Notes under the pieces: model-generated
Databases searched by the model: none
What the model saw: the letters and a program-made list of their open reading frames with translations, nothing else
What the model was told of the DNA's origin: nothing
Translations under genes and position numbers: made by a program
Shown here: piece by piece, positions 47,801 through 64,000 of the stretch
Numbering within the stretch: the stretch's first letter is position 1
How the letters are laid out: each line of letters opens with the position of its first letter
Assembly (NCBI GenBank): GCA_041615815.1
Contig: JBFJCP010000023.1
Location: 16,597-80,596 of the forward strand
Source of the DNA: Gemmatimonadales bacterium
GTDB lineage: Bacteria > Gemmatimonadota > Gemmatimonadetes > Gemmatimonadales > GWC2-71-9
Direction of reading: 5' to 3'
Length of the DNA: 64,000 nucleotides

Positions 47801-48118
47801 AAGCCGAGGATCGCGGCGATCCTCACGTTGGAGATGCGCTTCAGTGAGAAGACGGCACAGGTTTGCGTACCCGGTGGGTGTCTCGACGAGCAGAGTGACG
47901 TGCGAGCCATCCAACAGCGAGACCTCGGCACCGGTGATGGCTTGGATTCCCAGATGCTTGGCCGCCTGAGCAAACGCCATCGACCCGTATATGCCGTTGT
48001 GGTCGGTCAGGGCCATTGCCGGATACTCGAACTCATGGGCCTGGAGCACCAGTTGTTCGGGGTGCGAAGCACCATCGAGGAACGAGAACGCGGAATGACA
48101 GTGGAGTTCGATGTACAT
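44804..48118 (-). CDS. dnaE2: Error-prone DNA polymerase III alpha homologue
   Basis: PHP motif ELHCHSAFSFLDGAS; GRGSS, PDIDLDF, KIDFLALG, FPKSHA and NNQPMGFY; OB-fold ARQRPQTA; C-terminal SKDWG (DnaE2 SRDF-like); downstream of imuB. Confidence 0.95.
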   Translation of the reverse strand: MYIELHCHSAFSFLDGASHPEQLVLQAHEFEYPAMALTDHNGIYGSMAFAQAAKHLGIQAITGAEVSLLDGSHVTLLVETPTGYANLCRLLTEAHLQREDRRDPRLDFASLEERHEGLLVLSGCRDGLLPQVLDREGYTAARRLAERCRAVFGMERFFVELQRNAVQGDRARTRALCDIADAVGLSVVATGDVHYHRRERHRLYDALVAIRHRTTLDASHDVRKPNSEFFLRRPADMQIAFRDRPDAIANTVLIAERCTAFDLTKDLGYTFPDFRGANGRTPPQALGELCRAKLEENYPVDSQHHRDAVDRLEEELRLIAHHGLCGFFLVYHDLFDLARAVAADVRRGTRRALGNMLPGRGRGSSVSSIVCYLLGLSHIDPIQNRLFLGRFLNETLASVPDIDLDFSREIREELMRRVYQRYGEEHVGLVCTFPTYRLRSAVRELGKALDLPPGEIEQVARLASHYSANGLREELRQLPGMADRVDAPLWRELCELAEEIAGLPRHISQHVGGMIISSRPLVEIVPLERSAMPDRVLCQWDKDSCDDARFIKIDFLALGMLSLVEECTELIARKEGTTPNLSRIEFTDEAVYDQICSGDTVGLFQIESRAQIQMIRRTRPRNLEDLAIEVAIVRPGPIVGGAVNPYVRRREEQRRARERGDLYEPPVAHPLLREALSETLGVIVYQDQVLQVCQALAGFTAGQAEALRRAMSRRRSRELMENFWEDFRDGAANRGVSEAVARRVFEQVVAFSEFGFPKSHAAAFGLLAYQSAWLRHYHTVEYYTALFNNQPMGFYSLDALGRDAARHDVQVKLPDINASDVHCTIEEQCVRVGLGFIRNWGLDVAEQVVLEREHRGPFRSLGDFVRRAPAGLSRDCIDNLVWVGGCDGFGLTRRELLWQAGLWLPPKTEPPDRRRVRRQLELPLNHPHEGLSFGTLTQDEQLLAEYEVLGFAASGHPLSLLRDALPANVIRSDRLEEIEHEGPVEVAGLVVARQRPQTARGFTFILIEDETGMINAIVRPKVFERDRIAIRGEPFLWITGTLARDDGTVNIIAEEVRALRVRRTSGMPDGRTPGLSDASAAPAHSPYSFLKRLRRHAPGSKDWG

Positions 48119-48262
48119 GAAGAAGGGCGCAGGAGAGGCAGCTCATCCATCCACTCTCTCCCGAGGCAGTGGCGGCAGTCGATGACGTCGGTCACCAAAC
48201 ATCTTCTGCCGCTTCACCCCAGGGGAAGTGGAAGGGCGGGGCTGTCTCCTCTGCCGCCGCCG

Positions 48263-48625
48263 TTATGGCTTCTGCATGAACCATTCGTTGGTCATCAGGT
48301 TCTCGAACAACACCATGTGCCCTCCTCCTTCCATTGCCACGTCGACGTAGCGTCGCGAAACGGGCTTTCTCCACCACTCGTCGTCGATACGCCAGATTTC
48401 CAGGATCTCTTCCACCCTTCGCGCGTCATCCATGAGAGTGATGCATTCGCGGGCGCCTTTGGTTCTTCTGTCCCCGCTGCCCGCACTGTCCCTACTGCTC
48501 CCATCAACCTTTTCTCTTACTGCCACAGGCATACCAGCTGCGTCGAGCTCGACCTCGACGCGTACAGGCACGTTCAGGGCTCGAAGTCGATCAGCGCGTA
48601 CCGGCGCTCGGGAAGACGTGACCAT
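48263..48625 (-). CDS. Small DUF6504-like protein of the mutagenesis cassette
   Basis: LNVPVRVEV...VEEILEIWRIDDEWWRKPVSRRYVDV...LFENLMTNEWF resembles the ImuB C-terminal/DUF6504 module. Confidence 0.75.
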   Translation of the reverse strand: MVTSSRAPVRADRLRALNVPVRVEVELDAAGMPVAVREKVDGSSRDSAGSGDRRTKGARECITLMDDARRVEEILEIWRIDDEWWRKPVSRRYVDVAMEGGGHMVLFENLMTNEWFMQKP

Positions 48626-49968
48626 GGATGCACCTCGATGACGTGATAGAGCATGGAGCGTTTGAGGCGGGTCTGGATCTCGCGGGCTGCTGTCCGCAAT
48701 GCGCGCTGCCTGCCGGCACGGGCACTGCTCTCGGCATCTCGAACAAAGAGCTGTAACTCGTCCGTTCCACGAACGAATTCGATGAACTCAATGGCCAGAT
48801 GTTCCACCGCTCCCACCGGAGGAGATTGCTCGAGGCGGGTGTTGAGCGGTTGGGCGATGCGTTCTCGAATGGCCGAAGGGTCTTTGAGAGCCACCTCGAC
48901 CATCCATGAGGCTCCGTTTTCGAGGACTGCGCGAGCGCGGAGTACATGTATACGCCACCCATGGCGTCGGGGATGCTTCAGTGCCCGATCGATCAGCAAC
49001 CCCAGGGCGTGGGCCAGCATTCCCCGATCCGCCACCGGTGTGAGATAATCGAGAGCGGCAATAATAGGCTCGGGACGCGGTCGGCCAACTACCGGATCGT
49101 CAGTGACGCCTGTTGCGAGTTGCCAGGCATATCGCCCCTCACGACCGAACTGGGCGACCAAGGCCTCTTCCGGTAAAGCGGCCACGTCGGCAAGCGTTTT
49201 GATGCCGAGTTGCCAGAGTCGGCGTTGGGTGTCGAGCGTGACGGGTAGGGCGACGATGGACTGCACAGCGAGGAATATCGTGCGGCGCTGATCGGGGATG
49301 ATCACCCACTCACCGGGTTTGGCTTTGGCCGCTGCCACCCAAGCCACGAACTTGCCACGCGCCCAACCCAGCCGCACCCAGTCCACCCAACTCGCCCGTT
49401 CCGAAAGACCACTGCCGCCCTCGCTCTTTTTTCGGATTCGGCGACCCCATCGCTCTCCTGCTCCCCGGTCTCGGCTCCCCGCTCCCGCATACCGCTCGAT
49501 CGCAGCTCGGATGGCGAGCAATTGCTCTTCGGGTCCTCCCACTAGCCGATCCAATCCATCCACGCCCACGAACACCTTCCCCAACTCGACGGGCTCGACG
49601 ATCGGACTGATACTGCTCAGTGCGAGGAGAATGCGAGCGAACTGCTCGTCGTAATACACGGGGTCCGGCTCACACAATGCCAAAGATGGACACAAGCCAA
49701 TCGCCTGGCTCACGGTCATCCCGGTCTTGACTCCAAGACGTCGGGCAAGTGAGGAAACCTGCCAGAGTCGGCGGGTGTCTTCCGGCGCGAGCACCGCCGC
49801 GGGTTTCGCGGCCAACTCGGGCCGCCGCAACTCCTCGGCGCGCAGGGTAAACGTGGGAATCCAAACACACACAGCGGAATCGCTGGCGAGTACGGGTCCT
49901 TCGGCAGCGTGGACCGGTGGACCGGCAGTTGGATGCGCTGGCGGATGGACAGGAGGCATCAAGACCAT
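48574..49968 (-). CDS. imuB: Inactive Y-family polymerase homologue ImuB
   Basis: ARRLGVKTGMTVSQAIGLCP, LWQLGIKTLADVA and QFG. Catalytic Asp motifs are replaced (CVWIPTF; VEPVELGKVF). Clamp-like ELQLF present. Start is ATG 49968 or 49959. Confidence 0.9.
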   Translation of the reverse strand: MVLMPPVHPPAHPTAGPPVHAAEGPVLASDSAVCVWIPTFTLRAEELRRPELAAKPAAVLAPEDTRRLWQVSSLARRLGVKTGMTVSQAIGLCPSLALCEPDPVYYDEQFARILLALSSISPIVEPVELGKVFVGVDGLDRLVGGPEEQLLAIRAAIERYAGAGSRDRGAGERWGRRIRKKSEGGSGLSERASWVDWVRLGWARGKFVAWVAAAKAKPGEWVIIPDQRRTIFLAVQSIVALPVTLDTQRRLWQLGIKTLADVAALPEEALVAQFGREGRYAWQLATGVTDDPVVGRPRPEPIIAALDYLTPVADRGMLAHALGLLIDRALKHPRRHGWRIHVLRARAVLENGASWMVEVALKDPSAIRERIAQPLNTRLEQSPPVGAVEHLAIEFIEFVRGTDELQLFVRDAESSARAGRQRALRTAAREIQTRLKRSMLYHVIEVHPWSRLPERRYALIDFEP

Positions 49969-49970
49969 TG

Positions 49971-49990
49971 AAACCGAAGAAAACCCGATA
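49971..49990 (-). promoter_or_regulatory. Direct-repeat operator copy 2 (TATCGG-GTTTTC-TTCGGTTT)
   Basis: Lies immediately upstream of the imuB ATG and matches the copies at 49998 and 52430. Confidence 0.7.
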
Positions 49991-49997
49991 ACCAAGG

Positions 49998-50032
49998 AAA
50001 CCGAATATATCCCGAAAATCGCAGTGTTGCAA
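49998..50032 (-). promoter_or_regulatory. Sigma70-type imuB promoter (TTGCAA-N17-TATATT) overlapped by operator copy 1 (TTTCGG-GATATA-TTCGGTTT)
   Basis: -35 at 50027-50032, -10 at 50004-50009, operator at 49998-50017. Confidence 0.75.
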
Positions 50033-50192
50033 GGTCTAGATGTGGTTCCTATAAGTCTTTTAATGACATGTGTTTAGTTGCTAGACATGGTGCTGCGCGC
50101 CGCCGTCAGACTGGCGAAGCCATCCACCCATCCGGGACGATGTGAGCGAGTGTGGGCTTCCCCGTGGGTACCCCCGTCCCTAACCTCTTATC

Positions 50193-51086
50193 ATGATCCG
50201 TTTTGGCGTTGCCGGTTGGAGCTACGACGACTGGTACGGTCCTGTCTATCCTATCACGAAACCCAAGGGGTTCGATCCCCTCGCGTACCTTGCCCGTTAC
50301 TTCGATACCATCGAAATCAATTCGACGTTTTATCGTCCACCCACCCCTAGGACTGCCGAAAACTGGGCGCGGCGTATCTCACATAACGCTCGCTTCTCGT
50401 TCACCGCTAAGCTGTGGCAGCGCTTCACCCATCAGCGCGAGGCCGCCTGGACTGGCGACGAGCGTGATCAAGTGGTGGCCGCGATGACACCTCTCGCCCA
50501 AGCGGATCGGCTCGGATGTCTCCTCGCACAGTTTCCCTGGTCGTTCAAACGCTCACCGGAATCGGAGGAATGGCTCGGCGATCTCGTGACCGCCTTCGGA
50601 GAGTTTCCTCTCGCCGTGGAGGTGCGCCACAGCTCGTGGAACGTTCCGGATTTCTATCGATGGCTCAGCGACCGACAGGTTGGGGCGGTGAATATCGATC
50701 AGCCCATCTTCGGGCACTCCATAAAGCCAGGTGCCGCAGTGACGTCGCCTGTGGGGTATATCCGGCTGCACGGTCGAAACTATCAAAACTGGTTCCGTGA
50801 CAACGCCGAATCCCATGAGCGCTACGACTACCTCTACACGGCGGAGGAGCTCAAGGCGTGGCTGGATCTGATTCATCAGGTCGCAGCGCGCGCGCGCGAG
50901 ACATACGTGATTGCAAACAACCACTTTCGAGGACAAGCTCCCGCCAACGCGGCGATGCTGGAAAAGCTGTATGGGCACACCGACGTCGAAGTACCGCCCG
51001 AGCTAGCCCGGAGTTACGGAGAGATCCTCGAGCCGCTGGGGATTCGCGGCGCTGGAGCTCACGGAGAGCTGGAGCTGGGACTTTGA
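50193..51086 (+). CDS. DUF72 domain protein
   Basis: GVAGWSYDDWYG, YARYF-like YLARYFDTIEINSTFY, LAQFP, VEVRHSSW, YIRLHGRN, YDYLY and ANNH. Confidence 0.9.
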   Translation: MIRFGVAGWSYDDWYGPVYPITKPKGFDPLAYLARYFDTIEINSTFYRPPTPRTAENWARRISHNARFSFTAKLWQRFTHQREAAWTGDERDQVVAAMTPLAQADRLGCLLAQFPWSFKRSPESEEWLGDLVTAFGEFPLAVEVRHSSWNVPDFYRWLSDRQVGAVNIDQPIFGHSIKPGAAVTSPVGYIRLHGRNYQNWFRDNAESHERYDYLYTAEELKAWLDLIHQVAARARETYVIANNHFRGQAPANAAMLEKLYGHTDVEVPPELARSYGEILEPLGIRGAGAHGELELGL

Positions 51087-52252
51087 TCTTTGCGCGGGCC
51101 GGGACGATCGAGCGCTTCGCTTCGCTCTTCCGCCATCGGGTTTGTTCGCTCTGCCGACCGTCCCGACCCCCACAAGGTCAGTTGTGTTGGGGCGGCTGCC
51201 ATCACCGCCGGTTGCTCTTGGGCTCCATTCGTATCACGGATTCCAAAGCGCGCGGCGATCCGCCGAAACCGAGCTTCCACCGCATCCTTGTAGGCCTTGG
51301 GGGCGTCGCGCCGTGCGCCGAAGGCAACCCGATATCGACGTGCCAATGCCGGGAATTCACGCTCCAACACTTCGACGAATCGACGGCGGGTATCAGGGTA
51401 CAGTCTGAGGACGCTGGGGTAGACGAAGCGCGCCCCCGCCGATGCTGCAGCGGCCATGAGATTGCTGATCTCATCCGCTGTATCGGTGAGCCCTGGAAGC
51501 ACCGGAGCCACGATGAGCCCCGCGCGAACCCCGGCCTCGGTCAAGTGATGGAGTGCCCGCAGCCGCGCATGCGGCATGGGGGACCGTGCCTCGAAGAGCC
51601 TGATGAGACGGACATCCACGCTGATGAGCGACACGTAAACGCTCACACGATGCCGGTCCGCGAGGGTCCCCAACAGGTCGATGTCTCGGCACACCAATGG
51701 GCTCTTTGTGATAATGCCAATATGAAGTCCGCGCTCCCCACACAAACGCTGTAGAACGGCGCGCGTGATCCCGAATTGTCTCTCCGCGGGTTGATAAGGA
51801 TCCGTCGCCGTGCCAAGTACGATGTTCTGCGCTCCCACCGCTCGCCGTCGCACGGCGGCGAGATCACGGTCGAGGGCGGCGAGCAGCGTACCCCGTTCCT
51901 TGACGAAGATGCGTTGCTCGAAGGGCTCGCCCGACCCTCCTTGCGCGGTGACCGTTTTTGGGGCTCCAGCCCGCGCATATCGTTGGGACAGATACTGATG
52001 GGCGAAGCGCGCGTAGCAATACGAGCAACCGAACTCGCATCCGACGTAGGGATTGATCGACCAAAAGCTCATTCCGGTGGCTTCAGGTGGGTTGATGGCG
52101 GTGTTGCCGCGGTGCTCGACGAACTGTGCGCCACGTCGCCGGACATCGAGTACGACCGGGCCGACAACTCTCTCGCGTGCGCGACGGTGCCGGAACAGCT
52201 CGACCTGACCAGGTGCCTGGTCGAGACATGGAAGCGATAGGCCTACCCGCAT
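51059..52252 (-). CDS. Radical SAM protein (SplB/Rv2578c/PA0069-like, DNA-repair associated)
   Basis: SINPYVGCEFGCSYCYAR (CxxxCxxC), GTATDPYQPAE, IITKS and APVLPGLTD. The start is uncertain; ATG 52252 overlaps the upstream stop. Confidence 0.88.
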   Translation of the reverse strand: MRVGLSLPCLDQAPGQVELFRHRRARERVVGPVVLDVRRRGAQFVEHRGNTAINPPEATGMSFWSINPYVGCEFGCSYCYARFAHQYLSQRYARAGAPKTVTAQGGSGEPFEQRIFVKERGTLLAALDRDLAAVRRRAVGAQNIVLGTATDPYQPAERQFGITRAVLQRLCGERGLHIGIITKSPLVCRDIDLLGTLADRHRVSVYVSLISVDVRLIRLFEARSPMPHARLRALHHLTEAGVRAGLIVAPVLPGLTDTADEISNLMAAAASAGARFVYPSVLRLYPDTRRRFVEVLEREFPALARRYRVAFGARRDAPKAYKDAVEARFRRIAARFGIRDTNGAQEQPAVMAAAPTQLTLWGSGRSAERTNPMAEERSEALDRPGPRKDQSPSSSSP

Positions 52253-52428
52253 GCTCCCCAGCCGCACTGCCGACAGTGGAAACATCCCGAGCTGGCCAGC
52301 ATCGGGCCGCCGCAGTCCGGACAGCTGCTTCCGGTGGGCAAGGGAGGGCCCACTCCGTCGGGGACGCAACGGGGAGGGATCCGTGGCCGGTAAACCGTAG
52401 GGCGTAGTTTCGGGTTTTGTTCAGCCAT
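52243..52428 (-). CDS. Stand-alone Zn-ribbon microprotein (61 aa)
   Basis: MAEQNPKLRP...CPDCGGPMLASSGCFHCRQCGWGACG. The ATG lies 7 nt after a -10 hexamer. Confidence 0.7.
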   Translation of the reverse strand: MAEQNPKLRPTVYRPRIPPRCVPDGVGPPLPTGSSCPDCGGPMLASSGCFHCRQCGWGACG

Positions 52429-52616: not shown

Positions 52617-53756
52617 ATGAGAAGGCTGGCTGCCCATCCGCTCACCCGGGTGGCCACCGTGCTCGCGTTGTTGTTCGTATTTCTCCTCGGAGTGAACGGC
52701 CTCGGAGATGGCTTCAAGTCACTGGGGCGTGGTGCCCTGGAGGCATTCTTTCTTGCCACCACCAACCCGTTCATGGGACTGATGGTGGGGATTCTCGCCA
52801 CCACCTTGGTGCAGAGCTCTTCGGTCTCGACCTCGTTGATTGTGGCGCTCGTGGCCGCCCCCGAGAATCCGCTTCCCATCGCGAACGCTGTCCCCATGGT
52901 CATGGGTGCCAACATCGGGACCACGGTGACCAACACCATCGTCTCGCTCGCCCACATGGGACGGCGGGAGGAATTTCGGCGGGCCTTTGCGGTGGCCACC
53001 TGTCACGACTTCTTCAACTTCATTGCCGTGGTGGTCTTGCTGCCCCTCGAGCTGTTCACGGGCTATCTGCAAAAAAGCGCGACCACCCTTTCCGGTCTGT
53101 TGACGGGACTCAGTGGAGTCGACTACGACAGCCCCATCAAAGGGGCGCTGAAGGTGGGTCTCGCACCCATCAAGGCGGGGGTTGGATTCGTCACCGACTC
53201 CGAGCGTGCCCGAGCGTTCTTGCTCATCGGCATGAGCGGCGTCTTGATCTACACGGCACTCATGTTGTTGGTGCGGGTCATGCGCAAGGCGATGTTGTCT
53301 CGCGTGGAGAGCCTGGTGTCGCGAGTGCTGGATCGAGCAGCGGTGGGCGCCATGCTGGTTGGGGTCGTGGTGACTCTCATGGTGCAGTCCAGTTCGATCA
53401 CGACGTCTCTCTTGGTGCCACTTGCCGGCGCGGGAGTGCTCACGCTTCGCCAGGCGTTTCCCATCACCATAGGGGCGAACATCGGGACCACCGTGACGGC
53501 GCTGTTAGCCGCCCTCGCTGCAACCGGTGTGAACGCTGTTGCCGGCATCACCATCGCCATCGTCCATCTTCTGTTCAATCTGAGTGGTACCTTGCTGATA
53601 TACCCCCTCACGGCGGTTCGTAATCTTCCCCTTGCCGCGGCGCAACGGTTGGCGGACACGGCAGTCAAGTCTCGTCGCTGGGCTCTTGTGTACGTGGTTC
53701 TGTTGTTCTACGGTCTCCCGGCGCTGTTTGCAGCGCTGAATCGACTTCTCAGGTAG
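52617..53756 (+). CDS. Na+/phosphate cotransporter (NptA/SLC34 family)
   Basis: Two QSSS and two GANIGTT repeats, plus ATCHDFFN. Start set at ATG 52617. Confidence 0.92.
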   Translation: MRRLAAHPLTRVATVLALLFVFLLGVNGLGDGFKSLGRGALEAFFLATTNPFMGLMVGILATTLVQSSSVSTSLIVALVAAPENPLPIANAVPMVMGANIGTTVTNTIVSLAHMGRREEFRRAFAVATCHDFFNFIAVVVLLPLELFTGYLQKSATTLSGLLTGLSGVDYDSPIKGALKVGLAPIKAGVGFVTDSERARAFLLIGMSGVLIYTALMLLVRVMRKAMLSRVESLVSRVLDRAAVGAMLVGVVVTLMVQSSSITTSLLVPLAGAGVLTLRQAFPITIGANIGTTVTALLAALAATGVNAVAGITIAIVHLLFNLSGTLLIYPLTAVRNLPLAAAQRLADTAVKSRRWALVYVVLLFYGLPALFAALNRLLR

Positions 53757-53767
53757 GAGCGGAAGTC

Positions 53768-54457
53768 ATGCTACGCGAACTTCTCAGCATCTTTCGGCGG
53801 GACAATCCCCTCAGTGCAATGGGCGAAAACTTTGCACGAATGCTCACCCTCACCTACGAACTCACCGTCAGAGCCGGCGACATTTACTTTGGAAGACCAT
53901 TCACGTCTGAGGAGCGCACCCAGATCTACAAACAGGATGTGCAGGTCAACAAACTGCAGCGGGTGATCCGGAAGCAGGTGATTGCCCATCTGAGCATTCA
54001 AGGGAACACCGCAAATCTCCCTTACTGTTTGCTGTTGATGAGTCTCGTGAAGGATGTCGAACGCCTCGGTGACTACGCCAAGAACCTCGCCGACGTCGTG
54101 GAGCTGCGGCCGGACCCGCCTCCCGACAACGAAATCATCGCCGAGCTCAAAGAGATTCGTGGTGGGGTGGAAGGGGCATTTGGCGCGGCGGCCGAGGTGT
54201 TTGGAACATCGGACCGGGAGCGAGCCATCGGGCTCATTCAAAGTGGTAAGAGTCTTGCACATCGGTGCGATGCACTACTCGCCACGATTGCTCGCTCCAA
54301 TTACGATTCCACCTTCACCACCGCCGCCGTGCTCGGCGCTCGATACTACAAGCGCATCGGCGGACACGTCTTGAACGTGCTTTCCGCTGTCGTGATGCCG
54401 CTGCACAAGCTGGATTACTACGATGAGAAGGAACTCGCTCCCGAGGTGGAAGACTAG
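53768..54457 (+). CDS. PhoU domain protein
   Basis: DVQVNKLQRVIR, KDVERLGDYAKN and YKRIGGH; follows the Na/Pi symporter. Confidence 0.85.
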   Translation: MLRELLSIFRRDNPLSAMGENFARMLTLTYELTVRAGDIYFGRPFTSEERTQIYKQDVQVNKLQRVIRKQVIAHLSIQGNTANLPYCLLLMSLVKDVERLGDYAKNLADVVELRPDPPPDNEIIAELKEIRGGVEGAFGAAAEVFGTSDRERAIGLIQSGKSLAHRCDALLATIARSNYDSTFTTAAVLGARYYKRIGGHVLNVLSAVVMPLHKLDYYDEKELAPEVED

Positions 54458-54479
54458 CAGTCGTGTTCGGACCGCGATG

Positions 54480-54722
54480 GCGTGCGCTCCGAGTCACCAT
54501 TGGATCATAGCGGCATGCAGTCCTGGCCAGGCGGGACGCGACCGCCCGGACTTGCTCTGACGGGCGTTCGGCAGCCGCTGCAACCACCTTGTACCCGTGC
54601 CAGGTGGCAATCACGTGGATGTTTGGCTCGAACGGAAGGTCTTCACCCTGGTAGCCCAAGGCCTCGAAGAGCACGCCGAGATCGCGAATGGAGCAGATGT
54701 TGCGTAGGACGCTTCGCAGCAT
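54480..54722 (-). pseudogene. Probable truncated 5' remnant of a larger gene
   Basis: About 70 protein-like codons (MLRSVLRNICSIRDLGVLFEALGY...RLARTACR) are followed by a frame that runs antisense into phoU without a fitting stop. Confidence 0.35.
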
Positions 54723-54856: not shown

Positions 54857-55540
54857 CTAGTAGATCAGGTGGCTCCGGTCTCTTCTTTCTGCCTTGTCCA
54901 GATCGATCATCCGCACGTCATCGAGGTATGTGGTCGTGGGCGCAGTCACCAGTCCGGTTATCTTCTCGACGGTCTGCGTGATGCGTTTGCCCGACTCGTG
55001 AATGTTGCGCACCGCCGCCTGTTGACTCTCCGAGAGACTCGATCCTGCTAGCAGAAAGTCGGTTTCCGTAATAATGGTCATGAGCGCGTTGTTGATCTCA
55101 TGCTGGACCGTGACGGCGAGCTCACCGATGCTCGCCATGCGCTCGTTCTTGAGGGAACGTCCATAGTAGACATGGAGTTCCTCGGACAGCCAGCCCACGG
55201 TGATCGTCAGTGTGCCATAAGCGATGTAGATGGGGACGGTGACACGCCAATCATCCGGATTGAGACTCAAGGCGAGAATCAACTGCACGGTGATGAACAG
55301 ACCGGTACCGGCCAGGAGTCCGACGAGCGATCCTCTCAAGCCGAAATGGAGTGAAAGTAAGAATGCCGGGGCTATCGTCACCAGCCACACGAGCTCGTCG
55401 GTTGACCCGGGATCGTCTGGCAGTACGAGCTGCACGATGACCGGCATCAGGTATGCCGCCACGCAGTAGATCCAGAACCGAGTCTTGAATGGAGGGGCGT
55501 GCGGCAGGTGCCGTAACTTGAACGCGCTTGCTATCGCCAT
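54857..55540 (-). CDS. Membrane protein with HisKA phosphoacceptor domain but no HATPase domain
   Basis: About 4 TM helices, then ERMASIGELAVTVQHEINNAL (H-box). The protein ends about 75 aa later with no N, G1, F or G2 boxes. GGAGAG RBS before ATG 55540. Confidence 0.8.
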   Translation of the reverse strand: MAIASAFKLRHLPHAPPFKTRFWIYCVAAYLMPVIVQLVLPDDPGSTDELVWLVTIAPAFLLSLHFGLRGSLVGLLAGTGLFITVQLILALSLNPDDWRVTVPIYIAYGTLTITVGWLSEELHVYYGRSLKNERMASIGELAVTVQHEINNALMTIITETDFLLAGSSLSESQQAAVRNIHESGKRITQTVEKITGLVTAPTTTYLDDVRMIDLDKAERRDRSHLIY

Positions 55541-55574
55541 GCGCTCTCTCCGTCGAAATGCCACTCGACCCAAG

Positions 55575-56666
55575 TCACGACTGGGCGCGAAGCTCGAGTG
55601 GCTGGGCGAAGCCCTCTTGGCCAGGGGCGACGTGCGTCTGACGCTTCAGCGCCGCCTCGAGGGCGTCGACGATCGCGGGATCCAGGACCGACCCCTTGAG
55701 TTCATGCATGCGCTCGACCACACCGTCGGTCGAGAACGTGTCACGGTACGGTCTGGGGCTCTTGAGTGCATCATAGACCTCGGCTGCGCAAACGATCCGC
55801 GCACCCAAGGGAATATCCTCACCGCTCAGGCCGTCGGGATACCCACTGCCGTCCCAGTGTTCGTGATGACTCCGCACATAACCAGCAATAGCACTGATGT
55901 CGGGCAAGGGCTCGAGAATATGTGAGCCGATGACCGGATGCTCGCGAATGTGCTCGTACTCCTCGTCCGTGAGAGGCCCTTGCTTGTTCACGACCTCCTC
56001 GCGAATGCCAACCTTGCCCAAATCGTGGAGCCGACCGGCAATGCGAACCCGTTCGATCTCCTCTTCGGGAAGGCCCAGTTCGTAGGCGATCGTGGTGGCC
56101 AGAGCAGCGACCCGGGCCGAATGGCCGATCAAATAGCGGTTTTTGGCCTCCAAGGTGTTGACCATGGTCTCGAGAGTGGCGAGGGTGATCTTCCCCTGCT
56201 GGCGTTCCCACGGCACATCGTGGCCTCGACGCTGGACCTCGCTCTTGAGCCAGCTCGTGAGCTGGTGACTTTGGATGATGGTCTCACGTCGGCGCAACGC
56301 GCGGTTGACAGCACCAAGTAATTCGGTGAGCTCCACCGGCTTCGTGAGATAGTCCATCGCACCGCCCTGAAGGCTACGGGTGGCACTCGCCGCGTCGGCC
56401 ACAGCGGTGAGCATCAGAATGGCGAGGTTCGGGTCGATGTCCAATGCTCGGGGCACGACATCGACGCCGCTCATCCCCGGCATTCGGATGTCGAGCAGCA
56501 TGGCCGAGACGTCGTGTGCCGCGACGTGCTCGAGGGCAGCTGCACCGGAGTCGACTGTTTGCACGGCGAAGCCAACCCTCCCGAGGTAGCGAGCGAGGGC
56601 TTCGCGGAGGGAGGGCTCATCATCCACGATGAGAAGGGGAACAGGTGGTGTCTGTGTGGTAGCCAT
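55575..56666 (-). CDS. Response regulator with HD-GYP cyclic-dinucleotide phosphodiesterase domain (RpfG-like)
   Basis: REC motifs IVDDE, LLDIRMP and YLTKP; HD-GYP motifs GHSARVA, LHDLGK and HHEHWDGSGYPDGL. Confidence 0.93.
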   Translation of the reverse strand: MATTQTPPVPLLIVDDEPSLREALARYLGRVGFAVQTVDSGAAALEHVAAHDVSAMLLDIRMPGMSGVDVVPRALDIDPNLAILMLTAVADAASATRSLQGGAMDYLTKPVELTELLGAVNRALRRRETIIQSHQLTSWLKSEVQRRGHDVPWERQQGKITLATLETMVNTLEAKNRYLIGHSARVAALATTIAYELGLPEEEIERVRIAGRLHDLGKVGIREEVVNKQGPLTDEEYEHIREHPVIGSHILEPLPDISAIAGYVRSHHEHWDGSGYPDGLSGEDIPLGARIVCAAEVYDALKSPRPYRDTFSTDGVVERMHELKGSVLDPAIVDALEAALKRQTHVAPGQEGFAQPLELRAQS

Positions 56667-56702
56667 GGCTCCCGTGCACTTTCACAAAAAGCTCGAGATG
56701 TT

Positions 56703-57152
56703 CTACTCGATGACTAGGGTGACCTGCGTCGCACTGCCGAACGCAAGAGGTCCTCCGTAGAGGCCCTTGATTGATTCCATGAGCCTTGGATCGTCGGTCC
56801 GAACCTGCAGCCCGAGCAGCAACGATTGTCTTTGTCGTCTGGGGAGGCCGTTGGGCAGTGACCACCGCCGCCAGCGATAAGTCACGTTCGGAAGCTGGAA
56901 CGTGAAGCCTTGGGGCAGCGATGCCATGAGTTCCGCGGGGACCTGGCCCCAACCCTTGGAGCTCGGAAAGGTCTCGGCTTCCGCGAAGCGATCGAAGGCT
57001 GCCGCCCGGACCGCGTGAAAATCGGCAATCACACTGGCCGCCTCTGCGCGACGGCGCACGTCCTGTACCTTCGGAATGGCGACATTGGCGAGAATCCCCA
57101 GGATCGTGACCACGATCATCAGTTCGACGAACGTGACGCCCCGCCGGTTCAT
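56703..57152 (-). CDS. Type IV pilin/pseudopilin
   Basis: Class III signal MNRRG|VTFVELMIVVTILGILANVAIP with Glu at +5. Confidence 0.88.
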   Translation of the reverse strand: MNRRGVTFVELMIVVTILGILANVAIPKVQDVRRRAEAASVIADFHAVRAAAFDRFAEAETFPSSKGWGQVPAELMASLPQGFTFQLPNVTYRWRRWSLPNGLPRRQRQSLLLGLQVRTDDPRLMESIKGLYGGPLAFGSATQVTLVIE

Positions 57153-57631
57153 TGGATTTGATTCCGAGAAAGCAGTTCGTATGCGCGTGCAAGCTCGGAC
57201 ATGTCCTCGCCGGAGCGATACACGATCTCTCGCTCCCCGACTTTCGCTCTCAGCTCATAGGCGTTGCCGCTGACGGCGTACTGCACGCCCTCCTCGTTCA
57301 CGTTCAAAACCTCCAACTCCGTCGGAAGCGTGCCTGTCGAGTCCCGATAGAGCTCGAGCGTCTGAACGATGAGATAGAGGGTGAACCGGGTTGCAACCTC
57401 CTCCTCGCCCGCTCTCAAGGAGTCGAGATTTCCGGTTGTCCCGATCAGGTTCCAGGCGGTGAGCGAGATGGCCACGGCCAGCAGGGTAAGCAGGAGCGGC
57501 ACTTGAGACAAACGGCGTGGGAGGGTGCGCGGCCGGGCAGCTGTCGCCTCCCGTTCCAGAATCTCCTCAAAGTACTGGGCCGGGGATTCCGAAGCGGATA
57601 GGGTCGACTTCCGTGCCTCTCGGGGTGTCAT
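57149..57631 (-). CDS. Single-TM hypothetical protein with a pseudopilin-head-like segment
   Basis: TM segment LLLTLLAVAISLTAW; LELYRDSTGTLP; ATGA-coupled to the pilin gene. Confidence 0.72.
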   Translation of the reverse strand: MTPREARKSTLSASESPAQYFEEILEREATAARPRTLPRRLSQVPLLLTLLAVAISLTAWNLIGTTGNLDSLRAGEEEVATRFTLYLIVQTLELYRDSTGTLPTELEVLNVNEEGVQYAVSGNAYELRAKVGEREIVYRSGEDMSELARAYELLSRNQIQ

Positions 57632-57635
57632 TGGC

Positions 57636-59747
57636 CTACTCGGTGGCGACCGTGGTCCCGGCGCGCCGCAGCGCCGCGCGGATACGTGCGACGAACCGAG
57701 GAGGATCGATCGGTTTCCGAATGTAATCGTCCGCCCCCTCCTCCATCAGCCGGACCTCAGCGTCCGGATCGTTGGTCCCGGTAAGCACCACGATCGGCAG
57801 CGTCGCAGTCGCCAGAGAAGAACGGACCTCGCTGAGGACTTCGCCGCCGCTGAGCTTCGGCATGTCGAGGTCGAGTACCATCAGGTCGTAATTCCCCCCG
57901 TTGGCCAAGCGTTCGAGAGCGACCGTTCCGTCCTGCGCCTCCGAAACGCGAAACCCATGCTTCGTCAACAATGCCTTGGCGAGTGTGCGATTGACCGCAT
58001 CGTCGTCGACCAGCAAGATGTGTGTCTCACTGGACGCCCGCTGGACCGTACGCTCTGGCGTCTTGCCGAGGGTGCGCTCGAGTTCGGTCAGCGTCGTCGA
58101 ACCCGCACGAACTTGTTCGAGCGCGGCATCCCGCAATGTTCGCATCCCAGCGGCGCTGGCGGCGCGCGTCAGTTCGGCGGATGTCGCACCGCTCGCGATG
58201 AGCTGCCCGAGCCGCTCGTCCAGCACGGCGACCTCGGCGACCGCCGTGCGGCCACGGTACCCGGTCTGCCCGCAGGCGCGACACCCCGCCGGAACGGCCA
58301 TGCACTCGACACCGTAAATCGCTGCGAGCCGCTGTTCTTCTTCAGGTGTCGATGCCTCGCCCGTGGGCCGAGCGCATCGTTCGCAAAGCCGGCGTATGAG
58401 CCGTTGCGCAACGACACCGCGGAGGCTCGCGGCGATGGCGGAGCGTTCGAGCCCGAGGTCGACCAGACGCTGGACGGCACTCAATGCATCGTTGGTGTGC
58501 AGGGTCGCGAGCACGAGATGACCAGTCATGCTCGCCTGGACTGCGACCTCAGCGGTTTCGAGGTCTCGGATCTCCCCCACGAAAATCACATCGGGGTCTT
58601 GTCGCAGAATGGCGCGGAGCGCAGACGCGAACGTGACGCCGCGTCGTTCCTCGACTTGGATCTGGGTGATCTCGGACAGCTCATATTCGACGGGATCCTC
58701 GACCGTCATAATGTTGATCTCACCCGTGGCGAGCTCCCGAAGCGCTGCGTACAGGGTTGTGGTTTTACCGGACCCGGTAGGTCCTGTGATGATGAGAATT
58801 CCATCCCGATGCGCAAGCAGATGGCGGATCGACTCGACGTTGCCTGCGGCAAGGCCGAGGTCATCCAGACCCAAAGATGCCGAAGGATCGAGAATGCGGA
58901 TCACCGCCTTTTCGGCATCTCGCGTGGGAACCGTCGAGATCCGCAGGTCATACGTGCCGTCACTGACCTGAACACGTGCCCGACCATCTTGCGGACGGAG
59001 CCGATCGGCAATGTCCAACCGGCCAAGGATCTTGATTCGCGACACGACGCGGTTCAGCGCTGGCATCGGTATCACCATGTACTTGAGGAGCACGCCGTCT
59101 ACACGAAAGCGCACGGTACCGACTCCGCGGCTTGGCTCCAGGTGGATGTCGCTGGCCCGATGCGTGATCGCGTCCCGCAGAATCAGGTTCGTCAATTTGA
59201 CGACAGGGCCGGACTCCAACGCATCGGCCGCTAGGGCTTCCGGTTCCGTCTCGTCCAGGATACGAACGGCATCGACCACGTCGGGGTCCACGCTGCTGAC
59301 CAGCGACTCCAATACCCGTTCCGGCGAATAGCCCGCTTCGATCTCGCTTTCGATTTCATCGGGAGGTGCCACCTCGAACAGCGGCGTACGGCCGGACGCG
59401 AACCCCAGTGCCTTCTCGGCGTCGAGATCCATGGGGTTGCTGGTGGCGACGACCAAATGCCGGTCATCTTCTCGGAGCGGAAATACGCCAAAGCGCCGTG
59501 CCAGGTCCTCGGGCACGAGTTTGAGCACGCGGTTCTCCGCAGAGCCAAGCTCCGCGGCCTGCAATCGGAAGTGGGCGGCCACGTGCTTCGCCAGGTCTTG
59601 GTCGGAGACCTTGCATGTCGTTTCGACCGTGTCCCAGACATCCTTAATCTCCATGCCGGGGTGCAAGGTCAGGTTTTCGACCCCCTCGAGGCCAACGCGC
59701 TGAACGACCTGGTGCATCCAGTGCGTCGCCACTTTTGCTTCAGCCAT
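57636..59747 (-). CDS. PilB/GspE family assembly ATPase fused to a C-terminal receiver domain
   Basis: ASDIHLEP, PQDGR, GPTGSGKTT, TVEDPVE, LRQDPDVIFVGEIRD, GHLVLATLH and CxxC/CxxC; REC motifs LLVDDD, LDLDMP, VLTG and YIRKP. Confidence 0.93.
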   Translation of the reverse strand: MAEAKVATHWMHQVVQRVGLEGVENLTLHPGMEIKDVWDTVETTCKVSDQDLAKHVAAHFRLQAAELGSAENRVLKLVPEDLARRFGVFPLREDDRHLVVATSNPMDLDAEKALGFASGRTPLFEVAPPDEIESEIEAGYSPERVLESLVSSVDPDVVDAVRILDETEPEALAADALESGPVVKLTNLILRDAITHRASDIHLEPSRGVGTVRFRVDGVLLKYMVIPMPALNRVVSRIKILGRLDIADRLRPQDGRARVQVSDGTYDLRISTVPTRDAEKAVIRILDPSASLGLDDLGLAAGNVESIRHLLAHRDGILIITGPTGSGKTTTLYAALRELATGEINIMTVEDPVEYELSEITQIQVEERRGVTFASALRAILRQDPDVIFVGEIRDLETAEVAVQASMTGHLVLATLHTNDALSAVQRLVDLGLERSAIAASLRGVVAQRLIRRLCERCARPTGEASTPEEEQRLAAIYGVECMAVPAGCRACGQTGYRGRTAVAEVAVLDERLGQLIASGATSAELTRAASAAGMRTLRDAALEQVRAGSTTLTELERTLGKTPERTVQRASSETHILLVDDDAVNRTLAKALLTKHGFRVSEAQDGTVALERLANGGNYDLMVLDLDMPKLSGGEVLSEVRSSLATATLPIVVLTGTNDPDAEVRLMEEGADDYIRKPIDPPRFVARIRAALRRAGTTVATE

Positions 59748-62700
59748 ATGCCGGCTCCCGTGTCATCGTGGCATCGAGATATTCGATGACCGCGGTGTAC
59801 GTCGCTTGAACCTCATCCATGAGGCTTCGCGCCTGTTCCACATCATCGTTCTCGCCGGCGTCTTCGAGCTGTTGCAGCAGGTCGGCGAGCCGACGGGCCA
59901 TGATGGTTCGAGCTGCCGACTTGAACGCATGGGCGGATGCCTCGATGGCGGCGGTGTCGGCGGCCTCGGTGGCCTGAGTCAATGCCTTCATGCGTTGCGG
60001 TGCGTCCTGCAGGAAGGTGTCCAAGAGAGTGCCCACGGCGTCTTCGACGCCGGCTTCTCGCATCGAGCGGCGAAACTCGTCGAGATCGACCGGTACGTCG
60101 GCCGTCTCGTCCACGGTGGGATCCGAATGTGGTTGCGCGCCGGTCACCGCCACGCCCCACCCTTCGACGGCCGCAAAGAGTTCATGCGGCTTGAACGGCT
60201 TGGGCAGATATGCCGTCATGCCGGCCTCGAGGCATCGCTCACGTTCACCGGACATGGCGTGGGCGGTCATCGCGACGATCGGGAGGTCCGTCAACGGCGT
60301 TGTCTCACGGATTGCGCGGGTGGCGGCAAGTCCGTCCATCATCGGCATTTGGATATCCATCAAAATGAGGTCGTAAGCTCCGGTACGAGCTGCCGTCACG
60401 GCGGTTTGGCCGTCGCCGACGATGTCCACATGGTGACCGCGCCGTCGGAGCATCGCCGCTGCCACCTCCTGGTTCACCGGATTGTCCTCGGCGAGAAGAA
60501 TGCGTACCCGGCGGCGAGTCTCCTCGATCGAATGGCGAGTGATGAGTTCGCTGTGCGTCGGTGATCCCGCGATCATCGCGGCGGCGGCTTCGAGTAACTC
60601 GATTCGCGAAACCGGCTTTGTGAGGTAAGCGGCGATCCCCACCTCTCGGCACCTCTGCCCATCGCCCCTCTGGCCTGCCGAGGTGAGCATCATGGCCCGG
60701 GTACCCACCAGTTCGGGCATGGTACGCATAGTGCGCGCCAGGTCGAATCCGTCGCGCTCCGGCATGTAGCCGTCGATGATCGCGAGGCTGTAGGGAGCCC
60801 CGTGGGTTGCGGCCTTCAGCATGACATCGAGCGCGGTGTCCGCATCGGGCGCCTCATCGACCGTGACACCGGCGGCCGTCAGCATCCCACACACGATGCG
60901 GCGGTTGGTCGGATTGTCGTCCACGACGATCCCACGCAGTCCTTCCAATCGCCCCACAACCGGTGTTGTGGCGATACCCTCGGCGTCGCGCTCGATTGTG
61001 AGTGGGACGGTGAAGTTGAATTCACTGCCCTTTCGCTCTTCACTGCTCACCTTCAGCTCACCTCCCATCATCGAGACGATCTTGCGGGCAATCGCCAGAC
61101 CGAGCCCGGTTCCCCCATAGCGGCGTGTGGTCGAGACATCCGCTTGACTGAATTCTTGAAAAATCGACTCTAGTTTGTCCGGTGAGATGCCAATGCCGGT
61201 GTCTCGTACCGAGAATGCTACGACCGCCTTGTTTTCAGACGCCGTCACGGGAGAAGCGGTGACAACCACCTCCCCTTCATGGGTGAACTTGACCGCGTTG
61301 CTGACGAGATTCGTGATGACTTGACGTAGCCGACTTGGGTCACCGCGTACCAGCCGTGGGAGTCGTGGAGAGACGTCGTAGAGAAGTTCGACGCCACGCT
61401 CGGAAGCCCGCGGTGCCAACAGACGGACAGAGGAATCCACCAGCGCAGCGAGATCGAATGGTATCTCCTCGAATTCCAAGTGCCCGGCCTCGATCTTCGA
61501 GAAATCGAGAATGTCGTTGATGATATGGAGCAGCGCTTCCGCCGAACTGCGCGCGAGATCTGCAGAGCGTAGCTGCTCTGCGTCGAGCGGGGTGTCCATG
61601 AGCAGCTCGAGCATGCCGAGGACCCCGTTCATGGGAGTCCGAATCTCGTGGCTCATATTCGCCAGGAAGGCGCTCTTCGCTTCGACGGCGCGCTCCGCTT
61701 CCTCGCGGGCCTCGACCAGCGCTTGTCGCGCTGCGGCACGGTCGGTGACATCTCGGGCAATCCCGTGGGCGCCGACGATTGCGCCGGCCGCATCACGGAG
61801 GGGCCTCGCCGCGAAGCTCAAATGCTTGGCTTGATTCTCCTCGTCTCGATGGACGGTCTCGTGATCGACGAGCTCGGTGCCGCTGAGCACCTGTTCAATT
61901 GCTTGGAGATCGAGTTTGTGATGCGACGGATCAGCGCGTTCAACGAACAAGCGACCCACGAGAGCGGCCGGCTTCACTCCGTAGATTCGTTCACACGCCG
62001 GATTGAGAAATGTCCACTTCCCTTCACGATCGATCTTCCATACGAGATCTGAGGCCGATTCTACCAGACTTCGATACTGCCGCTCTGCATCACGCAGTGC
62101 CTGTTCGGCGTGCTTCATATCTGAAATGTCGTCGTAGAGGACGAGCATGATGTCTTCGTCGACACTCTGCACGGGAGCCGCCGATGCCCGAACGGGCAAC
62201 AAGTGGCCGTCCCGCCGTCGCCGAACGACTTCCGTGACCACGACCTCGGCGTCCTCCACCCGCTTGTCCAATTGCATCGCTGCGTCCCGTTCGCCCGCCG
62301 GTACGATCAGCTCGTTGAGATCCTCTCCGATGGCTTGTTCAGCCGCGTACCCGAATAGACGCTCGAACGCCGGGTTGACGCCCAAGATGCTGCCATCCTT
62401 CCGAACCGTGACGATGGCGCCAGGGGCACTCGTGAGCAGAGCGTCCAAAAAGCCACGTTCACGAGCCGCTTCGGCTTCACTGAATTCCAGCCGAGCCGCC
62501 GTGAAGAGTTGGGCACACAAAGTCCGATGGCCCCGCCGGTAAATGGTTACCATCGTGGCTGCAAAGAGAGCGATGAGCGCGACCGCCGCGAGATGTGGAC
62601 GCGTCACGCCAGCCGCCAGCGTGCCGAGGGTGAGCGGTCCGAGGAGCGCGCCCATGAACGCGTAGAAGCTCCGGGGGTCGGCGATCAGGCTCGCGGTCCC

Positions 62701-63168
62701 ACCCGCCGTGAGACCCGCAAATACGACCATGATCAGCGCGAAGTACTCGAAAGGCATCCCTGGAGCCACCACCGCCGCGCCGGCCCCCCACGCCAGGCCG
62801 GCGGCGAGCACGCTGTTCCGAACCATCCGCGTGCGATAGGCGGGTGGATGCTCGCGCCGTGCGAGGCGCTGGCGCACGACGGCGCGAACCACGGTAGCCG
62901 CGGCCACGGCGGCGAGCCATGGCACCAGCACGAGTGGACGCGCGACGCCCCAGACCAAGACCGCCACAACCAGCAACAGGACGAGATGCGCGACTTCACC
63001 CATTGGACTTTCGAACAAGAGACGGCGTGCCAACGCATCCCCCACCGACGCATCGATACGCGCCTCATGCGCTTGCTCTGCTTCGGCACCGCGAGACCTC
63101 ATCAGCAGCGACGTGCGCCTCCGTTCACCACTGCGGCGGCGATCACGTTGCTGGGATTCGTCGTTCAT
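59740..63168 (-). CDS. Hybrid sensor histidine kinase (multi-TM, 2 PAS, HisKA, HATPase, 2 REC, Hpt)
   Basis: MSHEIRTPMNG, NLVSNAVKFT, DTGIGI, GGTGLGL, two REC domains and Hpt AHAFKSAA. Start set at ATG 63168. Confidence 0.95.
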   Translation of the reverse strand: MNDESQQRDRRRSGERRRTSLLMRSRGAEAEQAHEARIDASVGDALARRLLFESPMGEVAHLVLLLVVAVLVWGVARPLVLVPWLAAVAAATVVRAVVRQRLARREHPPAYRTRMVRNSVLAAGLAWGAGAAVVAPGMPFEYFALIMVVFAGLTAGGTASLIADPRSFYAFMGALLGPLTLGTLAAGVTRPHLAAVALIALFAATMVTIYRRGHRTLCAQLFTAARLEFSEAEAARERGFLDALLTSAPGAIVTVRKDGSILGVNPAFERLFGYAAEQAIGEDLNELIVPAGERDAAMQLDKRVEDAEVVVTEVVRRRRDGHLLPVRASAAPVQSVDEDIMLVLYDDISDMKHAEQALRDAERQYRSLVESASDLVWKIDREGKWTFLNPACERIYGVKPAALVGRLFVERADPSHHKLDLQAIEQVLSGTELVDHETVHRDEENQAKHLSFAARPLRDAAGAIVGAHGIARDVTDRAAARQALVEAREEAERAVEAKSAFLANMSHEIRTPMNGVLGMLELLMDTPLDAEQLRSADLARSSAEALLHIINDILDFSKIEAGHLEFEEIPFDLAALVDSSVRLLAPRASERGVELLYDVSPRLPRLVRGDPSRLRQVITNLVSNAVKFTHEGEVVVTASPVTASENKAVVAFSVRDTGIGISPDKLESIFQEFSQADVSTTRRYGGTGLGLAIARKIVSMMGGELKVSSEERKGSEFNFTVPLTIERDAEGIATTPVVGRLEGLRGIVVDDNPTNRRIVCGMLTAAGVTVDEAPDADTALDVMLKAATHGAPYSLAIIDGYMPERDGFDLARTMRTMPELVGTRAMMLTSAGQRGDGQRCREVGIAAYLTKPVSRIELLEAAAAMIAGSPTHSELITRHSIEETRRRVRILLAEDNPVNQEVAAAMLRRRGHHVDIVGDGQTAVTAARTGAYDLILMDIQMPMMDGLAATRAIRETTPLTDLPIVAMTAHAMSGERERCLEAGMTAYLPKPFKPHELFAAVEGWGVAVTGAQPHSDPTVDETADVPVDLDEFRRSMREAGVEDAVGTLLDTFLQDAPQRMKALTQATEAADTAAIEASAHAFKSAARTIMARRLADLLQQLEDAGENDDVEQARSLMDEVQATYTAVIEYLDATMTREPAYG

Positions 63169-63207: not shown

Positions 63208-63875
63208 TCGGCGGCGCCATGCGAGCCGGTTGGGACCAGCGGCACAATCCTGGCCTCCCACGTGACAGGCTGCGTGTGCCACCGCAGCATGATCTCCGTC
63301 ATACTGCGAAATCGCTTTCGTCCACCGGCACCGCATCTGATCGTCGCAGCAGTTCCTGACGCACGCGCTCAGCCACCACATAGAGCACGAAAGGGCTACC
63401 ATAGAATCCGGCGGCTAGCAGATCGTGGATCTCGAGCAACCGATCCTCGGACGGATGGTGTTGACCCGTGCTCGGGAGTTCTACCGCCCGTTGTGTCAGC
63501 TCGAACTCGTCGACACGCGAACCGGAACCGTTGCTGCTCACCGTGGGTCGCTGCTGCTGAAATCCTTCAGAGCTCGATTGCATGGTGCGACCGTGAGACT
63601 CCGTTTTCGACCGATAGTCGGTGAAATGAGCTGGGACGCGTAGGCTCTCGGCGAAAGAAGCTGGAGCTCCCATTGGCACCGGGCCGAATGGTTGATCCGA
63701 GCTTCGATAGTGGGTATCGGCCGATCGTGAAGAAACTTGAGTCAGCTGGCGCCCGGCTGCACTGCGTTGCGTAGGGAGGGCTTCATCACTGTTGCTATCG
63801 GCCCGGCCATGCCAGATCTTTAACGGGCCTGAAGTTGGACCGTCCCACGTCCCCGCTTCGTGCAAACGCGAGATC

Positions 63876-64000
63876 ATGGCAAAGATTCTCTGTATCGACG
63901 ACGAGCCATCGGTTGCAGTACTGATCGAGCGGGCCCTCCGCGAGATGGGTCATGATCCCGTTCTGGCCCAGAGTGTGGCGGAGGCTATGAAGATGATCGA
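63876..64000 (+). CDS. Response regulator, N-terminal receiver fragment (runs off the window edge)
   Basis: Manual translation MAKILCIDDEPSVAVLIERALREMGHDPVLAQSVAEAMKMI. Confidence 0.8.
   Translation, partial: MAKILCIDDEPSVAVLIERALREMGHDPVLAQSVAEAMKMI

Follow-up and report, generated by a model that had tools for sequence, protein, structure and literature searches.

Receiver control of the extension motor of type IV pili has been described for DrdR of Xanthomonas campestris, a free REC protein by which the ATPase activity of PilB is raised (PMC13507683), for PilG/FimX/PdeR (PMC11656802) and for the PATAN regulators (10.1101/2021.06.11.447907). The receiver is a separate protein in all of them. 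A receiver which is fused to a PilB/GspE-type ATPase is listed for Gmet_3473 of Geobacter metallireducens (REC-MshEN-T2SSE architecture; Supplementary Table 4 of PMC5013675, an entry which carries no functional reference). Non-flagellated Legionella retain the flagellar regulators fliA, flgM, fleN and fleQ (PMC5655016), and WhiG of Rubrobacter, which belongs to the sigma-28 family, controls type IV pili and enzymes of cyclic di-GMP (c-di-GMP) metabolism (PMC12871210). REC-fused T2SSE ATPases, orphan flagellar regulators, sigma-28 control of pili and receiver control of PilB are thus all known as single parts. The present study deals with a block of seven genes at the end of a stretch of 64,000 nucleotides (the window) from a Gemmatimonadales bacterium (GenBank assembly GCA_041615815.1, contig JBFJCP010000023.1, positions 16,597 to 80,596 of the forward strand). 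Its genes, motifs, synteny and promoter sequences, together with an absence of flagellar matches, are the basis of a reading which we hold with moderate confidence, namely that the block encodes an accessory type IV pilus motor which is predicted to be phospho-switched by the adjacent Hpt kinase and to work on a machine encoded elsewhere in the genome. The source genome (G000; 4.19 Mb, 96% complete), of which the window reaches the end of contig C23, was compared with two congeners (G001 and G002) within a panel of 61 related genomes, with further individual loci (L-numbers; other C-numbers are contigs of G000) and with metagenome runs (X-numbers).

Six open reading frames (ORFs), all on the minus strand, occupy positions 54857 to 63168, and a seventh co-oriented ORF (63299–63583, FlgM-like) and two sigma-28-type sites lie upstream of them. 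A first-pass annotation of the sequence had described the six as co-oriented, packed genes, and the ORF list, an independent codon-model gene caller, which returned the identical set, and a domain search agree with it on gene order, domains and junctions. The kinase gene overlaps the ATPase gene by 8 nt, a 4-nt gap separates the latter from the gene of a transmembrane (TM) protein, this one shares an ATGA overlap with a pilin gene, and gaps of 36 nt and 34 nt follow before an HD-GYP gene and a TM-HisKA gene, respectively. A sigma-70 scan of the locus yielded 0 sites, and the only terminator-like hairpin (56693–56710) is weak and below chance. A GC anomaly was also considered, and none was found at the locus.

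The first of the six genes (59740–63168) encodes a protein with five predicted TM segments, two PAS domains, HisKA (H507), HATPase_c, two receivers (D799 and D938) and a C-terminal Hpt domain (H1080). With the HisKA histidine, the HATPase, the receiver aspartates and the Hpt histidine all present, it is an unorthodox hybrid histidine kinase; its membrane part is similar to unnamed clusters only. The second gene (57636–59747) encodes a PilB/GspE-type ATPase, PilB-REC, consisting of the C-terminal part of MshEN, T2SSE (Pfam, 418 bits) and a C-terminal receiver (D626). Walker A, Asp box, Walker B, His box and the zinc-binding tetracysteine motif are all intact, and the protein stays below the NCBIfam equivalog cut-offs for both PilB (481 against 676 bits) and GspE (506 against 630 bits). 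Like Gmet_3473 it has a receiver fused to the ATPase, and unlike that protein, whose receiver is N-terminal and which is listed for proteobacteria (PMC5013675), it carries the receiver at the C-terminus, lacks the c-di-GMP motif of MshEN, is paired with an Hpt kinase and has its close named relatives in Gemmatimonadota, Eisenbacteria and Terriglobia. From DrdR, PilG/FimX/PdeR and the PATAN regulators it differs in the fusion of receiver and motor. The protein is not unique, and 60 of the 61 related genomes have a match. G000 itself holds five PilB-type ATPases, of which three have a C-terminal receiver, a fourth has a long low-complexity tail, and the fifth is the canonical PilB. The REC-fused ATPases form a single clade (support 1.0), divided into two subclades, in a tree of 79 proteins. 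An Hpt-bearing gene stands adjacent and on the same strand at 25 of 44 loci in the subclade of the window protein (24 of the 39 for which both flanks are available; two loci share one genome and the kin are not independent), as compared with 0 of 22 loci in the sister subclade; eight Eisenbacteria-type loci of the former lack an adjacent Hpt. The Hpt kinase and PilB-REC are tightly linked. The phospho-site of the window protein is intact, and its aspartate is retained in 54 of 58 aligned receivers. A tie of the subclade to flagella was tried as well and is ruled out, as only 2 of 17 genomes with it are flagellated. Two unusual forms of the ATPase were seen in passing: a paralog of the PilB-REC clade in which the receiver is replaced by a Pro/Gln-rich tail of ~650 aa (contig C18, 61653–65516, L003; also in G001 and probably in G002), and Terriglobia PilB-RECs of 1,050–1,170 aa, in which Glu occupies the phospho-site and the C-terminus carries additional sequence (L076:8938–12525 and L077:8914–12249).

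Directly behind the motor gene lies a pair of genes for a TM protein (57149–57631), which has a leader of ~43 aa, no class III cleavage site and no Pfam match and belongs to an unnamed family, and for a cleavable type IV pilin (56703–57152) with G-1, E+5, a TM helix and an N_methyl match above cut-off. Position +1 of the pilin is Val in G000 and Met in the congeners. The structural model of the TM protein (predicted local distance difference test score, pLDDT, 83) found pilins or pseudopilins as all of its 19 best matches among 48,161 chains, with a best Z of 8.3 that is near the level of chance best matches. The type IVa pilins 4d40, 6xxd and 5v23 share with it a long helix and a small beta sheet (Z 7.6–8.3, root-mean-square deviation 2.2–3.3 over 73–101 residues) and differ from it in that the TM protein lacks the class III site and has a leader whose helix (residues 18–30) is conserved. 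With this model no Foldseek match reached E 0.001, and a sequence search against the PDB gave only a weak pilin match (E 0.33). A pilin fold is thus what the model predicts, which agrees with the first-pass description of the protein as pilin-like. The family is large, with 1,662 clusters at E 0.001 and 1,025 at E 1e-10. Among its 150 best members none shows the strict class III pattern and one the loose pattern, and in 147 the TM segment begins at residue 25 or later. Within the panel the family is present in 30 of 61 genomes, and it adjoins a pilin gene in 20 of the 21 loci first examined, mostly with overlapping codons, in all 11 further loci (in L270 the pilin is on the opposite strand) and in the five inspected out of eight metagenome loci. 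Of 36 matches in kin, at least 9 have the pair immediately after a PilB-type gene (eight found against ten selected PilB positions, one added later), with PilB-RECs of either subclade, and the same placement behind PilB-REC is seen in L081, L059 and L234. A literature search which covered few subscription journals found no description of an uncleavable pilin partner or of a PilB with C-terminal receiver. The TM protein defines a large unnamed family of predicted pilin-fold proteins which are predicted to be unprocessable.

PilC/GspF, a secretin and a prepilin peptidase are all missing from the six-gene cluster, as the first-pass annotation had stated and the domain search confirmed. It had proposed an alternative pilus on host machinery, and the search for pilC, pilQ and pilD which it suggested was carried out. 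pilMNOPQ and minor pilin genes lie on C42, with the single secretin of G000 among them, and pilD, the peptidase gene, on C10. As secretin, PilMNOP, PilD and minor pilins are encoded elsewhere in the genome, a borrowed pilus machinery for PilB-REC is plausible. A pilC gene was not found. The only T2SSF match in G000 is an orphan protein of 266 aa with two such domains, away from any pilus gene (C12, 98283–99083). The canonical pilB is truncated by the end of C6, and since a PilT-like and a PilC-like gene (labelled by eye) follow the canonical pilB in all five relatives examined, pilC probably lies in the contig gap after C6. A different use of the same parts would be that no long pilus is formed and that the pilin and its uncleavable partner make up a short membrane-bound pseudopilus or sensor, moved by the phosphorylated ATPase for secretion or surface sensing. 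This fits the absence of a strict cleavage site in all 150 family members, the slightly higher NCBIfam score of the ATPase for GspE than for PilB and the equal scores of the pilin for GspG and PilA (all below cut-off), as well as T2SSG as the nearest named atlas cluster of the TM protein (score 0.82, a lead only). As, however, the sole secretin belongs to pilMNOPQ, no type II secretion cluster was seen in G000 and the best structural matches are type IVa pilins, we regard a pseudopilus as distinctly unlikely.

The motor of the window differs from canonical PilB in its relation to c-di-GMP. The tandem RLGxxLxxxG motif of MshEN (as defined in PMC5013675) is absent in all 66 members of the REC-fused clade. 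The canonical PilB, by contrast, carries both copies, as the sole strict match among the proteins of G000. A search of G000, G001 and G002 found no PilZ, and 11 proteins have a GGDEF motif. In Supplementary Table 5 of PMC5013675, MshEN is the only known receptor listed for Gemmatimonas aurantiaca. As PilB-REC lacks the c-di-GMP motif which the canonical PilB has, a swap of motors on a shared pilus machine appears plausible.

The predicted control by sigma-28 and a FlgM-like protein at the head of the operon lies outside the coordinates of the first-pass annotation and is absent from its reading. The ORF at 63299–63583, whose start is uncertain, is conserved only in its C-terminal ~37 aa. These 37 columns match seven proteins in FlgM position of flagellated kin (hhalign 97.6%), two of which carry a Pfam FlgM match, and the ORF is the sole significant match of the profile of these proteins among 40,327 frames of the genome. 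Pfam PF04316 did not match it; the same model missed 11 of 13 flagellated kin. The ORF therefore likely encodes a FlgM-like anti-sigma protein, which is predicted to bind FliA. Upstream of it, on the same strand, lie two sigma-28-type promoter sites, site 1 (63796–63822, TAAAG-N15-GCCGATA, the same site in G002) and site 2 (63715–63740, TCAAG-N14-GCCGATA, equivalents in G001 and G002). When scored with a matrix built from 12 flagellar-cluster sites of kin, site 2 reaches 24.5, the best value at the operon head, and the sites of the congeners 20.6 and 23.2, whereas none of 690 background upstream regions exceeds 17.9. The promoter boxes are conserved in the congeners while the spacers have diverged. 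G000 has four strict sites, all intergenic (91% of the sequence is coding), two of them at the head of the operon; the other two precede REC-TM genes, and one of these is conserved in both congeners. The two proteins behind sigma-28-type sites, with receiver, coiled coil and TM segment (C6, 754–1359, and C8, 74344–74973), have a homolog in the L081 cluster. Three genomes without FliA contain one, one and two sigma-28-type matches, none of them before a gene start.

Divergent from the operon and cut by the contig end is the 5′ end of a REC-sigma-54 activator gene (63876–64000, plus strand), the product of which shares 73% identity with the G001 protein over 41 aa. In G001 and G002 this activator gene is followed by fleN and fliA, facing away from the operon, with fliA whole in G001 and cut in G002. 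A sigma-54-type site before fleN is conserved in both (chance 0.01 per 400 bp), and identities between the two congeners are 86% for the activator, 70% for FleN and 80% for FliA (91 aa). The G002 activator is 53–67% identical to ten sigma-54 activators of flagellated relatives, eight of which lie within flagellar clusters. FliA exceeds the cut-off in 14 of 61 genomes, namely the 13 with flagellin and G001. Flagellin, FlhA, FliG_C and Flg_bbr_C (hook/rod) were not found in G000, G001 and G002 (91–96% complete) and were found in the control G014. The FliA of G001 groups (0.994) with a second, non-flagellar FliA of G030, inside the flagellar FliAs of the family, so that a duplicated regulator cassette is as likely an origin as a leftover of a flagellar cluster. 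In the flagellated genomes G030 and G037, second cassettes of sigma-54 activator and FliA lie apart from the flagellar cluster (L217:9056–11331 and L218:9149–11473). The situation resembles that in Legionella, where FliA, FlgM, FleN and a sigma-54 activator also occur without flagellar structural genes and FlgM would have to be released without export (PMC5655016), whereas here the four regulators, with fliA seen only in the congeners, sit together at a single locus, and the flgM operon runs on into a pilus-motor module. In flagellated kin, by contrast, flgM is followed by a CheY-like gene. Rubrobacter WhiG offers a parallel to the predicted targeting of pilus genes and of a phosphodiesterase by a sigma-28 factor. 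WhiG, however, uses the anti-sigma factor RsiG, which is unrelated to FlgM, whereas the window has a FlgM-like gene and a single accessory motor instead of a core pilus cluster (PMC12871210). The locus adds a phylum to the cases of flagellar regulators outliving the flagellum; flagella and type IV pili are reported as patchy in this phylum (PMC10581226). Of 21 other TM/pilin operons scored (three listed operons were left out), four have a high-scoring site in front, two among the 9 of FliA-bearing genomes and two among the 12 of genomes that gave no FliA (72% and 88% complete), and one more such site precedes a PilB-REC of the subclade in L073. Modules of this kind may therefore have come under sigma-28 control before the genus arose.

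The fifth gene (55575–56666) encodes a REC (D59)-HD-GYP protein (HD_5) with the motifs HD, HHExxxGxGYP and RxY[K/R] (here RxYR; motifs as given in 10.1101/2021.11.05.467447) in place. Tyr178 occupies the third-metal position, where, in the same source, Tyr marks the two-metal type of HD-GYP. The protein is 64% identical to a paralog on C8. Glu296 replaces the conserved C-terminal Asp. We take this Asp to be a metal ligand. Among 13 distinct HD-GYPs examined seven have the Glu, and these are all seven members of the subtype seen. The sixth gene (54857–55540) encodes a TM-HisKA protein without HATPase_c and with an HEINN box. Its start was placed at the ATG at 55540 in preference to the TTG at 55573, as all 120 aligned homologs have 210–279 aa. 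The family comprises 434 homologs found in the range of 124–398 aa, with longer fused forms outside this search; HisKA is the sole domain in the 120 listed, all of which have the His, with Asn at +4. A broken gene is ruled out by the constant length and by this His in 120 of 120. HisKA boxes with such features may have a phosphatase or a phosphotransfer role, and the protein could accordingly be a phosphatase or phosphotransfer protein; its single-sequence model is poor (pLDDT 46).

Several observations weigh against the motor reading, in addition to the modest Z of the TM protein model. At the promoter, the strict site count is modest (4 against 1.2 expected, and spacing 6 also gave 3), the reversed control pattern gave eight matches in G002 against five, and a high-scoring site is missing in 7 of the 9 TM/pilin operons from FliA-bearing kin of other genera. 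Both fliA and pilC are absent from the G000 assembly, where each would sit just past a contig end, and were seen only in congeners. When contigs of runs X1 and X5 were aligned to the G002 regulator locus, fliA of the G000 strain was not placed; one X1 contig extends 4,029 nt beyond the window end. PilB-REC is a lineage-wide paralog family with three copies in G000 alone, and with ~54 REC proteins and four Hpt domains in this genome adjacency does not fix the phosphorelay partners. The linkage and the retained aspartate speak for the claimed wiring of a phosphorelay to the ATPase. Of the claimed arm of c-di-NMP turnover, the HD-GYP motifs stand, but the active-site residue is altered, and because Glu stands at the conserved Asp position phosphodiesterase activity is uncertain. 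The synteny comparison proposed for the ATPase with receiver held for the Hpt kinase and failed for the remaining genes: HD-GYP is near only 6 of 44 PilB-REC subclade loci, only 5 of 44 have the TM/pilin pair three genes away or closer, and no genome-level association of the pair with the subclade exists (9 of 17 against 21 of 44, p 0.78). TM-HisKA adjoins HD-GYP in 3 of 27 loci, all three in the source genus.

The complete order of six genes is found only in G000, G001 and G002 (3 of 61 genomes), so that co-conservation is confined to one genus, and a single co-evolved unit is ruled out by the locus counts for HD-GYP, TM/pilin and TM-HisKA. The locus is a genus-level mosaic of separable modules. 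Run X7 supplies a further point on the same side, as in a single contig with a depth of 6.7, which stems from a soil strain that is related, position 57677 is joined to 63115. In this contig kinase and PilB-REC are gone while the promoters, the pilin pair and HD-GYP are kept; the deletion (window 57678–63114) is apparently in-frame, with near-zero cover between its ends. This variant agrees with a modular locus and speaks against an obligate unit. It could be argued further that the modules behind the one sigma-28 promoter act separately, PilB-REC being an output or a phosphate sink of the phosphorelay with no special tie to the pilin pair or HD-GYP. The X7 loss, the occurrence of each module mostly without the others and the many TM/pilin operons in which PilB was lost and only a lone REC is left in front all speak for this. 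On the other hand, the pair has repeatedly been placed behind PilB-RECs of two different subclades, the codons overlap, and a distant Gemmatimonadota cluster (L081:1–12847) unites a TM-kinase, an HD-GYP of the same type, RsbR/S/T-like genes, a kinase, Hpt, PilB-REC and the pilin pair. We therefore consider such a loose assembly rather unlikely. A decaying remnant of a flagellar sigma-28 regulon, little expressed and being lost, would account for the X7 deletion, the non-conserved N-terminal half of the FlgM-like protein and the fliA not seen in G000. It appears very unlikely, given that all ORFs are intact in three species (45–87% domain identity), that activator, FleN and FliA have kept the identities stated above, and that promoter boxes are kept where spacers diverged.

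For the accessory motor the following course can be envisaged. The sigma-54 activator would drive fleN-fliA, FliA would transcribe the block, and the FlgM-like protein would damp its expression. Phosphate would pass through the kinase from His to Asp to Hpt and on to Asp626 of PilB-REC, which would then engage the shared PilC/PilM machine and handle the co-encoded pilin, while the partner without cleavage site would remain in the membrane as anchor, chaperone or brake. A weaker step is that the recruited HD-GYP might lower c-di-GMP and so disfavour the canonical, MshEN-bearing PilB, resulting in a motor swap. A wider version, which we put forward as speculative and probably not correct as a whole, would have interchangeable motors on one pilus machine, a c-di-GMP-gated PilB and phospho-gated PilB-RECs, with an ex-flagellar sigma-28 checkpoint triggering the swap by expression of motor, kinase, c-di-GMP hydrolase and dedicated pilin, and with an uncleavable pilin of a new class as a membrane adaptor which ties motor to pilin via its cytoplasmic helix. 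The question addressed by the locus is the choice of motor and pilin in cells with several PilB paralogs and one platform. Since the motor carries a receiver of its own and is encoded next to its kinase, purified proteins could be used to test whether phosphorylation controls pilus extension directly.

Most probably, TM-HisKA is a passenger at the site of insertion, being a resident gene of a phosphate-transport site. Nineteen of the other 24 TM-HisKA loci lie beside PHO4 or PhoU genes, like the window copy. G002 has two TM-HisKA copies, one of which is kept with the operon, a small point for linkage. Convergent with TM-HisKA, a Na/Pi cotransporter and a PhoU gene lie at 52617–54457 (plus strand). 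As this phosphate-transport neighbourhood is retained in most kin, TM-HisKA may serve phosphate signalling. A short remnant (54315–54722, minus strand) resembles, by eye, the start of an Eco57I-like methylase gene at the same site in G001. Elsewhere in the window (44804–52285) lie genes for an error-prone DnaE-type polymerase, an ImuB-like protein (IMS), DUF72 and radical SAM proteins, which resemble an ordinary mutagenesis/repair cassette. The metagenome runs which hold DNA of the locus are labelled as marine and soil metagenomes.

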